This document shows, in pieces, positions 7,660 to 46,298 of a stretch of 64,000 nt of DNA. This DNA is from Eledone cirrhosa (Eukaryota), in NCBI GenBank assembly GCA_964016885.1, contig OZ024742.1:262136001-262200000 (forward strand). Direction: 5' to 3'. Under the pieces are notes generated by a model that was not told the origin of the DNA, made no database searches, and was given only the letters and a program-made list of their open reading frames with translations. How positions within the stretch are numbered: position 1 is the first letter of the stretch; every line of letters starts with the position of its first letter. Made by a program: the position numbers and the translations under genes.

Positions 7660-9851
7660 ACATATATTATATATATATATATATATATATATATATATAT
7701 ATATATATATATATTATATATATATTATATATATATATTATATATATATATTATATATATATATTATATATATATATATATATTATATATATATATTATA
7801 TATATATATTATATATATATATTATATATATATATTATATATATATTATATATATATATTATATATATATATTATATATATATATTATATATATATATTA
7901 TATATATATATTATATATATATATTATATATATATATTATATATATATATTATATATATATTATATATATATATTATATATATATATTATATTATATATA
8001 TATATTATATATATATATATATTATATATATATATTATATATATTATATATATATATTATATATATACATATATATATATATATATATATATTATATATA
8101 TATATATATATATATATATATATATATATTATATATATATATCATATATATACATATATGGGGTCTTACTGGTTCCTATTACCCACTCTACTACCTCAAG
8201 TATTGAGTACTTTGGTGCGTTATGGTCCACCTGGTTCCTTACCACATTTCCTTCGTTACATATATATATATATATTATATATATATATTATATATATATT
8301 TATATATATATATATTATATTTATATATATATATATATATTATATATTATATTTATATATATATTATATATATATATATATATATATATATATATATTAT
8401 ATATATATATATATATATATTATATATATATTATATATATATATATATATATATATATTATATATATATTATATATATATATATATATATATTATATATA
8501 TATATTATATATATATATATATATATATATATTATATATATATTATATATATATATATATATATATATATATATATTATATATATATATATATATATATA
8601 TATATATATTATATATATATATTATATATATATATATATATTATATATATATTATATATATAAATATATATATTATATATATATATATTATATATATATA
8701 TATTATATATATATTATATATATATATATATATTATATATATATTATATATATATATATTATATATATATATATTATATATATATTATATATATATTATA
8801 TATATATTATATATATATTATATATATATATTATATATATATATATTATATATATATTATATATATATTATATATATATTATATATATATTATATATATA
8901 TATTATATATATATTATATATATATATTATATATATATATATATTATATATATATATATTATATATATATTATATATATATTATATATATATTATATATA
9001 TATTATATATATATTATATATATATTATATATATATATTATATATATATTATATATATATATTATATATATATATATATTATATATATATATATTATATA
9101 TATATTATATATATATTATATATATATTATATATATATTATATATATATTATATATATATATTATATATATATTATATATATATATTATATATATATATA
9201 TATTATATATTATATATATATTATATATATATTATATATATATATTATATATATATATATATATATTATATATTATATATATATATATATATTATATATA
9301 TATATTATATATATATATATTATATATATATATATATTATATATATATATATATTATATATATTATATATTATATATATATATATTATATATATATATAT
9401 ATTATATATATTATATATTATATATATATATTATACATATATATATTATATATATATATTATATATATATATATTATATATAATATATATATATATAATA
9501 TATATATATAATATATATATGTATAATATATATATATAATATATAATATATATAATATATATATATATATAATATATATATATATAATATATATATATAA
9601 TATATATATATATATATAATATATATATATATATATATATAATATATAATATATATAATATATATATATATATAATATATATATATATAATATATATATA
9701 TAATATATATATATATATATATAATATATATATATATATATAAATAATATATAATATATATATATAATATATATATATATATATATAATATATATATATA
9801 ATATATATATAATATATATATAATATATAATATATATAATATATATATATG
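7660..9851. repeat. Interrupted (TA)n array
   Basis: Direct inspection; TT interruptions switch to AA interruptions near 9480. Confidence 0.95.
8160..8258 (+). mobile_element. Short copy of the hairpin/half-hammerhead element, starting at the predicted cleavage site
   Basis: GGGGTCTTACTGGTTCC...TTCCTTCGTTA matches 12712-12810 and 22984-23082; embedded in (TA)n. Confidence 0.8.
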
Positions 9852-10398
9852 TATTACAAAGTGCAGGGCAATAAAGATAGACGGTAGCCACGGAATAGGC
9901 AGACCTAGAAAAACATGGGATGAGCTGATAAACTCCGACCTCACACACTTACACCTCTCCAAGACAATGTCACTGGACCGTGACCTTTGGCGGTACTCAG
10001 TAACAGAGAAGACCCGCCTTGCCAGTAGGCATCTCTAACAAAATACACCCCGTCCCGCCACCACCCCCACCCCATCCACACCACCCCGTTCTATGTAAAG
10101 TTATGTTGGTGCCGCGCCATCCAGGCCGAAACAAATGAGATCGTGTAGGTGTCACGACAAAAAAAACACACAGTCCACGCTGTAATGTGGCCGTGTAGGC
10201 AACACGGTAAAAACCTCCCAGACCCACACTGTAAATGTGGTTGGTGTTAGGAAGGGCATCCAACTGTAGAAAACCTGCCAGACAGTCCTATGCGAGCAAG
10301 ACAATCACTCTTGCCTCAAGTGGGACTACCCCCGTCCAAACCCATGGAAGCGTGGAACACGGACGTTAAACGTTGATGATGATGATGATGATGATGAT
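9850..10398 (+). mobile_element. RTE family B 3' fragment
   Basis: Near-identical to ~6985-7523, with (GAT)n tail. Confidence 0.92.
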
Positions 10399-12607
10399 AT
10401 TATATATATATATTATATATATATATTATATATATATATTATATATATATATATTATATATATATATTATATATATATATATATTATATATATTATATAT
10501 ATATATTATATATATATATATATTATATATATATATTATATATATATATATATTATATATATATATTATATATATTATATATATATATTATATATATATA
10601 TATATATATTATATATATATTATATATATATATTATATATATAAATATATATTATATATATATATTATATATATATATATATATTATATATATATATATA
10701 TATATATTATATATATATATATATATATTATATATATATATATATATTATATATATATATTATATATATAAATATATATTATATATATATATTATATATA
10801 TATATTATATATATATATATATATTATATATATATATATATATTATATATATATATATATTATATATATATATATATATTATATATATATATATATATTA
10901 TATATATATATATATATTTTATATATATATTATATATATAAATATATATTATATACATATATTATATATATATATATTATATATATATATATATATATAT
11001 TATATATATATATTATATATATATATTATATATATAAATATATATTATATATATATATATATATTATATATATATATATATATTATATATATATATATAT
11101 ATATTATATATATATATTATATATATAAATATATATTATATATATATTATATATATATATATATATTATATATATATATATATATATTATATATATATAT
11201 ATATATTATATATATATATTATATATATAAATATATATTATATACATATATTATATATATATATATTATATATATATATTATATATATAAATATATATTA
11301 TATATATATATATATATTATATATATATATATATATATTATATATATAAATATATATTATATATATATATATATATTATATATATATATATATATATTAT
11401 ATATATATATATTATATATATATATTATATATATAAATATATATTATATACATATATTATATATATATATATATATTATATATATATATATATATATTAT
11501 ATATATATATATATATTATATATATATATTATATATATAAATATATATTATATACATATATTATATATATATATATTATATATATATATTATATATATAA
11601 ATATATATTATATATATATATATATATTATATATATAAATATATATTATATACATATATTATATATATATATATTATATATATATATTATATATATTATA
11701 TATATATATTATATATATAAATATATATTATATATATATATTATATATATATATTATATATATAAATATATATTATATACATATATTATATATATATATA
11801 TTATATATATATATTATATATATAAATATATATTATATATATATATTATATATATAAATATATATTATATACATATATTATATATATATATATTATATAT
11901 ATATATTATATATATAAATATATATTATATACATATATTATATATATATATATTATATATATATATTATATATATAAATATATATTATATAAATATATTA
12001 TATATATAAATATATATTATATACATATATTATATATATATATTATATATATATATTATATATATAAATATATATTATATACATATATTATATATATATA
12101 TTATATATATAAATATATATTATATACATATATTATATATATATATTATATATATAAATATATATTATATACATATATTATATATATATATTATATATAT
12201 AAATATATATTATATACATATATTATATATATATATTATATATATATACATATATTATATATATATATTATATATATATACATATATTATATATATATAT
12301 TATATATATATACATACATTATATATATATATTATATATATATACATATATTATATATATATATTATATATATATATTATATATACATATTATATTATAT
12401 ATACATATTATATTATATATACATATTATATATATATACATATATTATATATATATATATATATTATATATATATATATTATATATATATATTATATTAT
12501 ATATACATATTATATTATATATACATATTATATTATATATACATATATTATATATATATATATATATTATGTATATATATATTATATATATATTATATAT
12601 ATATATA
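10399..12607. repeat. Interrupted (TA)n array with TAAATA/TACATA variant units
   Basis: Direct inspection. Confidence 0.95.
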
Positions 12608-12810
12608 GGAACGAGTAGGACCCCGACGGCTGAGCTCAAGCCGTTTCGACGGCTAATTCTGGACTAATTTAGTCCAGAATTAACCGTCAAAACGGCTTGA
12701 GCTCAGCCATCGGGGTCCTACTCGTTCCTATTACTCACTCTACTACCCTAAGTATTGAGTACTTTAGTGCGTTATGGTCCACCTGGTTCCTTACCAAATT
12801 TCCTTCGTTA
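12608..12810 (+). mobile_element. Fold-back element: ~120-bp palindrome plus ~80-bp tail; contains the 3' half of a hammerhead
   Basis: Arms 12608-12667 and 12669-12728 are near-perfect reverse complements; homologous to 22891-23082 and 8160-8258. Confidence 0.85.
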
Positions 12811-12811
12811 T

Positions 12812-44455: not shown

Positions 44456-44580
44456 TTACAGTCGGCTTTGCCAAAAATTAAAAATCACTTGGTATGCAAG
44501 TTAGGCTAATCAGCCGATGTATACATTTGAGAATACTATGTATTCCCAGCAGTTCCAGTGGGTAGCAGCGGTGAGAATAC

Positions 44581-44625
44581 ACAGTCTCGATAAGGAGCAA
44601 CAACTTTGAAACAATTGTCGACTGT
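44581..44625 (+). ncRNA. Degenerate hammerhead (5' core mutated)
   Basis: ACAGTC-tcgataa-GGAG..CTTT-GAAA-CAATTG-TC^GACTGT; perfect stem I, core box 1 degraded. Confidence 0.5.
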
Positions 44626-44860
44626 TTTCTCTCAGGTACTGCTGGAACAAAAAGATGATGTGGTCATCTACAAAACACACATGGTGTTAATGAGACTGTT
44701 TGCTTGTAAACAAACTGAATATTAATAATATTACTATTATAATAATAATAATATTATTATTATTATTATTCACTCACGAATACATTTAAAATATCCACCA
44801 TGCTAGAGCGAAAACAAATTTTGTTTTTAGATATGTATATATATATGTATATATATATAT

Positions 44861-46298
44861 AAGTAGTAACACAACAGTTAGTTCACCATACCGAGAAACC
44901 CAAGCTATACAAAACCATGGGCAAAAGGTGTAAGGGAGATAACTGCGAATATCTGAAAACCAATGTTCGAGGAGTTGATTAGAAAATTAGAATGTTGTTG
45001 TTATTCAATCCGGAGCTTTGTAGTTATGCAAGAGGTGTTTCCAGATATGTGGACAACGTGAGAAGATTTCATTTCTTGAATTTAGGCAATCGCTATTGCA
45101 TAATCTCCTTAGAATATTTATCCTTTCTTCAATACACAGTCCACAAGACAGATTGCCCCTTGCATATGGTTTGGACTTAGTGATAGCTTTCCATTGAATG
45201 GAGTAGTCTATACCTGAGTCTTTGAGGGTCCATATGTGGTTCGCGAGCTTCATGGATGATCGTATGTCCGGGTACCTAAAGGTCGACTGATGGTTCAGGA
45301 AGTGTTCCTTAAATTGGCCCTCTGCCATACCCACATAGGATTTGACCTCCTGTGGTTGATTTGGTCGGTTGGAAGTGACCACAGTTTTGTAAACTACAGC
45401 GGGTGTGTTGCATTACTGTTGAAGGGGACAAGCTTCAGGCTTTCGGCAAGAGCATCCAACATTTTTAGCCCTCTTAGATAGACACTTTCCCATAGGTCAC
45501 AAATACTGCTCCATCTTTAACAGACACAGAGTAAAACTAGGGTACTCCTGCGCTAAGAATATGAAGGCCCACATCACCAACAGTCCTAAGAGGGGCACCC
45601 CACCAGGACGCTCTTGCCGAAAGCCTGAAGCTTGTCCCTTTCAACAGCGATGCAACACACCGGTTGTAGTTTATGAAGCTGTGGTCACTACCAACTGACC
45701 AAATCAAGCACAGTAGGTCAAATCATACGTGGGTATGGTGGAGGACCGATTTAAGGAATGCTTCCTGAACCATCAGTCGACCTTTAGGTGAGTGGACAAA
45801 CGATCATCCACGAAGCTCATGAGCCATGTATGGTCCCTCAAAGACTCAGGTATAGACTACTCCATTCAATGGAAAGCTATCACTAAGTCCAAACCATATG
45901 CAAGGGGCAATCTGTCTTGTGGACTGTGTATTGAAGAAAGGATAAATATCCTAAGGAGATTGTGCAATAGCGATCGCCTAAATTCAAGAAATGACATCTT
46001 CTCACGTTGTCCACATGTCTGGAAACACCTCTTGCATAACTACAAAGCTCCGGATTGAATAACAACATTCTAATTTTCTAATCAACTCGAACATTGGTTT
46101 CCGGATATTCGCAGTTATCTCCCTTACAACTTTTGCCCATGGTTTTGTATCGCTTGGGTGAAGTGACCGTTTCTGCACATGCGTGTTCATACGATTGTTC
46201 TTCCTGTTCTGTATAACCAATACCAGTCCGAGCTGAAGATCCACATAAGGTGAAACAATTGTTCTCGGTATGGTGAAATAACTGTTGTGTTACTACTT
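44861..46298. mobile_element. PLE 3' end present as a ~600-bp inverted duplication (44861-45478 / 45586-46298)
   Basis: GIY-YIG ORFs 45005-45382 (-) and 45792-46058 (+) are near-identical (YVGM..FKE.F.NH, CGLCIEE, LNSRNEI..CPH). Confidence 0.9.
46228..46268 (+). ncRNA. Minimal type I hammerhead in the PLE pLTR
   Basis: CCGAG-CTGAAGA-tCC acataa GGt-GAAA-CAATTG-TT^CTCGG. Confidence 0.78.

Follow-up and report, generated by a model that had tools for sequence, protein, structure and literature searches.

Passages of the literature already describe hammerhead ribozymes, inverted arms and tails in Penelope-like elements (PLEs), as well as R2 5′ insertion junctions that are defined by a ribozyme (PMC3774820). 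A direct arm with a tail joined to an inverted arm without one is a known PLE form (PMC8557442, PMC3846280), and the Penelope promoter has been located in the pseudo-long terminal repeat (pLTR; PMC2377424). In the parts cited here, PLE hammerhead cores with a U3-A8 pair are described as a variant and minimal PLE ribozymes are reported to cleave poorly in vitro (PMC4209133), and the function of PLE hammerheads is called unclear (PMC8557442). Here we analysed PLEs in a stretch of 64,000 nucleotides (nt) of the Eledone cirrhosa genome (GCA_964016885.1, contig OZ024742.1, positions 262,136,001 to 262,200,000, forward strand; hereafter the window), which sits in a TA-rich genome of 3.0 Gb (contig C3). 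A first-pass annotation had read three junctions in the window as fossils of reverse transcriptase running off a hammerhead-cleaved RNA end. A coincidence with the cut beyond chance was found in one of the three families only, in which the footprint was real and small.

The three junctions belonged to three separate PLE families, one each. All three families were inserted in TA runs and took the form of a direct arm with a tail and an inverted arm without one. Positions are numbered by the predicted hammerhead cut, +1 being the first base 3′ of it and -1 the last base 5′. Family 2 is the element at 15043-16146 and family 3 the inverted pair at 44862-46358. Family 1, a hairpin family, had window copies at 8160, 12605-12809 and 22888-23081, with these features:

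8160..8257, forward strand: short copy, starting at +1 of the predicted cut and running to the tail end, with TA runs on both sides and no inverted arm
12605..12665, reverse strand: inverted arm without tail, extending to the -41 stop
12671..12809, forward strand: direct arm that begins at A(-41), or at most 3 nt beyond it, and runs to the tail end, with the 3′ half of the hammerhead only and the site at 12711/12712
22888..22946, reverse strand: inverted arm, extending to about -39/-40
22947..23081, forward strand: direct arm from about -37, with the 3′ half of the hammerhead and the site at 22983/22984

The 8160 copy opened with GGGGTC immediately 3′ of a TA run, and its start at the predicted cut was thus as first annotated. 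At the cleavage triplet its sister copies had ATC (12709-11) and GTA (22981-83); they lacked the CUGANGA half and had the inverted arm as their 5′ part. A whole hammerhead with GTC before GGGG was absent from all three window copies and occurred only in long copies elsewhere; since the long copies hold it, the cut site is still real. The tail variants of the 8160 copy were common to two long copies (L473 and L474) with a U3-A8 hammerhead. Family 1 was assigned to the Hydra clade by its motifs. The 710-amino-acid (aa) frame of one copy (L392) carried RWR, DKT, C-x-C-x5-C, CNLC and CKH, with a C-terminal endonuclease and no CCHH, and Hydra-clade marks include DKT, an RWK-like motif, a CxCX5C linker, CxxC and CxH in the passages compared (PMC8557442).

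Junctions were sought in each family by requiring the downstream anchor and the absence of the upstream conserved bases, a filter that favours arms with a break close to the cut. The sampled loci were the first listed matches on contigs C1-C3, rather than a sample of the whole genome. A junction was called at the furthest matching base in the fetched locus and compared with simulated uniform breaks at four levels of microhomology bias. Counts adjoining the anchors (+7/+8, +5, +6/+7) are inflated by breaks within the anchor, which the null does not model.

Family 1 yielded 2,280 enriched matches against 25,224 exact-anchor arms in the genome. All 100 listed matches of the 2,280 were fetched, giving 17 intact copies with small indels and 83 junctions. 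By automatic calls, 16 of the 83 fell at +1 (4.7 expected) and 30 at -1 to +2 (13.9 expected, p about 2e-5). The first 70 matches, with four loci curated by hand, gave 11/56 at +1 (p 3e-4) and 21/56 at -1 to +2 (p 2e-4), and the excess in these 56 persisted under simulated microhomology bias. The peak that had been predicted within 3 nt of the cut therefore held in a narrower form, as the full +/-3 window contained 23 of the 56 against 18.6 expected (p 0.14, null without microhomology).

A second search was made for family 1 arms abutting a TA run (100 matches listed, 47 loci). Among the non-inverted truncations within -7 to +6, nine out of 20 started at +1 (p 7e-6, one ambiguous locus omitted), as did five of the 12 lying outside the first list (p 0.0013; ten of the 12 checked). 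Microhomology of the G does not explain these +1 starts, except in the one ambiguous case. That the peak is an artefact of sampling or calling is very improbable. The first listed matches, on contigs C1-C2, were sampled, the null was simulated, and the held-out last 30 matches were borderline alone (4/27 at +1 and 8/27 at -1 to +2, p about 0.07 each). Against this, two differently built searches agreed, automatic and hand-curated calls agreed, and the site had been named ahead of testing.

When scaled by the simulated filter pass rate of 0.68, about 4% of family 1 arms ended at -1 to +2, an excess of about 2.5%, and 3 of 43 unselected arms ended near the cut. Even in the family with a peak, most templates were read through the site, so that cleavage does not shape most insertions. 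Pairs in which both arms ended at the cut (7/18 vs 2/47, p 0.001, counted by eye) are not used as evidence, since the ends of paired arms correlate at every position.

The long copies of family 1 contained a type I hammerhead with a 5-bp helix I, a UUGA-N-AA core, a bulged helix II with a loop 2 of ~36 nt, a 6-bp helix III and GUC. Among the 100 long arms listed (of 5,137 matches, read by eye), A8 was present in 100, U3 in 76 and C3, which gives a C3/A8 mismatch, in 24; core position 7 was free (G, T or A). In 15 copies 88% of cells were paired, compared with 21-54% when slid. G10.1-C11.1 was present in 15/15 copies and the GUC triplet in most. The hammerhead fold lay 0.8-2.2 kcal/mol from the minimum in three U3-A8 copies. 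By its 6-bp helix III and GUC, this ribozyme should work as a monomer. An Rfam search of the window returned zero hammerhead matches.

We suggest, with a probability of about 0.47, that the family 1 peak arose from reverse transcriptase sometimes copying the 3′ RNA product of self-cleavage all the way to its end, and that the other two window junctions are background. In favour of cleavage in family 1, the peak occurs where the ribozyme is best formed, and the families with minimal ribozymes lack one. By analogy with the anole element discussed below, reverse transcription would start in the tail, ~100 nt downstream of the cut, and both target strands could prime. In family 1 the enzyme would usually reach a capped transcription start located in ribozyme loop 2. 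Transcripts beginning at this point would be devoid of the 5′ ribozyme half and hence incapable of self-cleavage in cis. Read-through RNA would contain the whole ribozyme and cut itself as a monomer, and its 3′ cleavage product, retaining the tail, would give rise to copies like that at 8160. The short inverted insertions would result when the enzyme runs off the RNA 5′ end and joining or fold-back then takes place.

A structural boundary that needs no cleavage is a somewhat less probable but serious alternative. Retroviral enzymes pause at hairpins and G runs. The enzyme might stall where the G4 run ends or at the helix III base; alternatively, a hairpinned cDNA end might be re-primed or trimmed there. 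Helix III ends at -2 and formed in 2 of 4 predicted folds of RNA started at -41, and 12 of the 83 junctions lay at -7, including helix III snap-backs and hairpin-skipping deletions. However, the peak was at +1 (16 junctions) and not at -2 or -3 (1 and 2), families 2 and 3 had no comparable interior peak beyond microhomology, and the peak fell in the family with the best-formed ribozyme. A recurrent 23-nt deletion, exactly of the helix III hairpin and between two GCCGTC repeats, was observed in 6/83 family 1 junctions (L157, L162, L292, L493, L496, L511).

Several further observations, like the borderline held-out set, weigh against copying of a cleaved RNA in family 1. The cut coincides with the helix III base and with the far limit of the G4 run. 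A stall or trimming could take place there without cleavage, and no internal control separating the two was found. Covariation was weak, with one compensated pair and 35 of 500 shuffles scoring as high. A CC-variant subfamily, in which five of eight long copies had the predicted-dead C3/A8 core and three had U3, gave 6/21 junctions at -1 to +2; this contribution of a subfamily with a partly dead core was near its 35% background share (read by eye), as the structural explanation would have it. With both cores present in this subfamily, contrasting dead with live cores did not separate the two explanations. The partner arm reached -36 to -45 in 8 of 18 loci with such junctions (by eye) and could come from fold-back on one full cDNA. 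Finally, ribozyme mutants of the anole element insert normally in vitro and zero RNA reads end at the cut, in the passages describing it (PMC11167929).

Family 2 was represented by the following features:

15043..15988, reverse strand: PLE direct arm with GIY-YIG remnant (15620-15988), 3′ untranslated region (UTR), hammerhead and tail
15266..15310, reverse strand: minimal type I hammerhead with CUGAAGA, an extra base before helix II, a 2-bp helix III and CUA; predicted cut 15271/15270
15989..16146, forward strand: inverted arm, starting at -3 and joined to the open reading frame (ORF) via a 2-nt microhomology

The GIY-YIG remnant matched Pfam PF01541 at E 1.9e-4 with 22.1 bits, slightly below the 22.6 cut-off. 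The 919-aa frame of another copy (L395) combined a CX4CxxC linker with a GIY-YIG domain of CCHH type, the reverse transcriptase (RT) lying upstream. By these motifs family 2 is classed as a Neptune/Nematis-type PLE, the two clades not being told apart. The annotated join of the inverted arm to the ORF at 15989, within 3 nt of the cut at 15271/15270, was confirmed. The arm retained CTA (-3 to -1). As the natural ORF continues CTTATC (41/46 copies), only CT is microhomology and A(-1) was not derived from the ORF. Out of 15,303 anchors there were 225 enriched matches, and about 96% of arms passed the site. From 70 loci with 72 matches, 63 junctions remained after eight intact copies and one duplicate were dropped. 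No peak was found, with 31/63 within +/-3 (27-34 expected) and five at +1 (3-10 expected), and 0 of 30 unselected arms ended within +/-3. A second family 2 end lay at 46459-46673 on the reverse strand; it was diverged (72%), had a decayed hammerhead core and was ~100 nt from the family 3 tail.

The family 3 insertion, which was old (arms 91% alike), consisted of:

44862..45457, reverse strand: inverted arm lacking 102 nt internally; deletion junction at 44897/44898 (-2)
45458..46358, forward strand: direct arm with broken Hydra-like endonuclease region, 3′ UTR, hammerhead and tail
46228..46268, forward strand: minimal type I hammerhead with CUGAAGA, a palindromic 2-bp helix III and GUU; predicted cut 46263/46264

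The broken endonuclease remnant retained CX5C, CGLC and CPH and was 29% identical to family 1 (E 2e-13); an RT was not seen. The ~100 nt described as missing from the left arm at the cut proved to be this 102-nt deletion, equivalent to 46160-46261 and retaining TT (-2, -1). An intron was ruled out by the absence of an AG acceptor, and a family variant by the junction being unique in the genome (1 match at <=1 mismatch). From 1,510 enriched matches we took 70 loci with 79 matches, and 57 remained after 11 intact, 8 duplicate and 3 hand-judged matches were dropped. There was no peak, with ten of the 57 within +/-3 (12-18 expected) and three at +1. It took the null with the strongest microhomology bias (mean microhomology 6.7 nt) to produce an excess, of 10 vs 5.0 (p 0.03). 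Of the unselected arms, 3/53 ended within +/-3, matching the local density.

Motif scans and folds of the family 2 and 3 hammerheads recovered the core, helices I and II and a minimal helix III, with CUA/CUU and GUU triplets. These ribozymes, with a 2-bp helix III, would need dimers, and they left no detectable footprint. It is very improbable that the three window junctions all record cleaved RNA ends and that cleavage shapes PLE insertions. The junctions do lie at +1, -3 and -2, and family 3 shows its excess under the one extreme null. However, the family 2 and 3 counts did not exceed expectation, only 225 of 15,303 family 2 anchors passed the break filter, and both of these window junctions retain bases 5′ of the cut. 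Since cleaved RNA lacks such bases, these junctions would need untemplated or chance bases. The breakpoint peak, and with it the ribozyme-fossil claim, accordingly did not extend from family 1 to families 2 and 3.

The dominant 5′ stop of family 1 was ~41 nt upstream of the cut, at a YAGTC motif within loop 2 that was kept across subfamilies; of 28 unselected direct arms reaching -35, 23 stopped by -45. We take this motif to resemble an initiator element. In family 3, 16 of 29 arms reaching -33 stopped by -41, at CCAGTCC, with an initiator-like A at 46225 (-39), and family 2 had a looser cluster of arm ends near -90 to -110. These clusters are likely to be transcription starts. An initiator-like TCACT has been noted in rotifer pLTRs, in part of an earlier account (PMC3846280). 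Immediately 5′ of A(-41), the 65 junction arms that extend to it had the native T or C (51 arms), G (12) or A (2), as read by eye; ~5 G cases without a traceable partner arm hint weakly at a copied cap. A TATA box ~29 nt before the -41 stop was not conserved across family 1 subfamilies and lends weak support.

In both Hydra-like families 5′ ends piled up at YAGTC ~40 nt before the cut (window 12671 and 46225; L211-L240, L411-L430), within loop 2 in family 1 and just before helix I in family 3. One family 1 copy with the 5′ ribozyme half (L462, C1:492021, reverse strand) had its end within a TA run, at about -44 and shortly ahead of the putative start. In families 2 and 3, a GCGCATGCGC palindrome, presumably NRF1-like, lay further upstream than the 5′ stop cluster (window 15394-15405, reverse strand, and 46172-46185, forward strand). 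At the family 2 stop cluster we found AAAATGGCG, which we regard as YY1-like.

A model resembling a retroviral R region can be drawn from these starts, although we consider it unlikely. Hydra-clade PLE transcription would start in or just before the hammerhead, and the ribozyme would cut read-through RNA only and set the RNA 3′ end. The 41 nt from start to cut would correspond to the R region, and tail-primed strong-stop cDNA would either jump to the cleaved 3′ end, so that the element is copied in full, or insert early. If true, the model would account for short hairpin copies numbering in the tens of thousands, for the minor +1 class and for the formation of pLTRs. No subfamily jump at the putative R region was seen in long copies, in which upstream and downstream variants were largely linked.

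Two further hammerhead-like motifs were observed in the window. The one at 32300-32368 (reverse strand) had CUGAUGA, a long helix II, GAAA, AUC and a 5-bp helix I, without G10.1-C11.1. The other, at 32862-32932 (forward strand), was weak and may be due to chance (CUGAUGA, GAAA, a palindromic CATG loop, GUU and a 4-bp helix I). Long open frames at 23465-26584 and 27017-29980 (both reverse strand) and 5263-7050 (forward strand), of 1040, 988 and 596 aa, look like endonuclease/RT ORFs of long interspersed nuclear elements, and further fragments lay nearby. A tandem array at 434-4569 had units of ~606 nt made of 98-nt and 25-nt subrepeats. Three copies of a repeat with a tRNA-like head (16353-16536, 40634-40816 and 57727-57910) are probably a short interspersed nuclear element. 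The repeat search of the window was dominated by TA runs.

Where one genome contains copies in the tens of thousands, the question of in vivo cutting by PLE hammerheads becomes a counting test. The counts limit cleaved RNA to a minor template at most in one family and to an undetectable one in two, and they point to a single ribozyme, a single site and a single likely start site. Searches of the open-licence literature found no paper that reports peaks of PLE junctions at a hammerhead cut or at a start site, and as far as that literature shows, such a peak at the cut is new, as is a dominant stop within a hammerhead loop.

The comparisons below rest on the relevant passages of each source. In R2, the self-cleavage site of the hepatitis delta virus-like ribozyme likewise coincides with 5′ insertion junctions (PMC3774820). 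Unlike in R2, the family 1 cut accounts for about 4% of short-copy arms, and a usual 5′ end defined by the ribozyme was not found, with 3/43, 0/30 and 3/53 unselected arms near the cut in families 1, 2 and 3. Non-LTR retrozymes (PMC7229834; bioRxiv 10.64898/2026.07.22.740005) are also short PLE-related repeats with type I hammerheads. They consist of tandem units, each with a whole ribozyme, whereas the short copies of family 1 occur singly or inverted and without the 5′ half. Identity with retrozymes was ruled out for the short copies, which are not tandem and have no whole hammerhead. Among the PLE hammerhead variants (PMC4209133), families 2 and 3 agree with the minimal type that depends on dimers. 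The large helix III of family 1 is like that of the monomer-active fungal and protist variants, but family 1 is an animal element. With Hydra-clade PLEs (Craig et al. 2021, PMC8557442) family 1 has in common the C-terminal endonuclease, DKT, CxCX5C, CxxC and CxH, (TA)n targets, a hammerhead, an inverted 5′-truncated arm and an optional tail. It differs in its long loop 2, which holds the main 5′ stop, and the passages on that clade give no junction statistics. The anole Poseidon element PAc (Frangieh et al. 2024, PMC11167929) resembles family 1 in an internal RT start downstream of the hammerhead, two start sites that give the tail, extension of both target strands and AT-rich targets. Cleavage of PAc is dispensable in vitro and no RNA ends lie at its cut, whereas family 1 has a minor genomic excess there.

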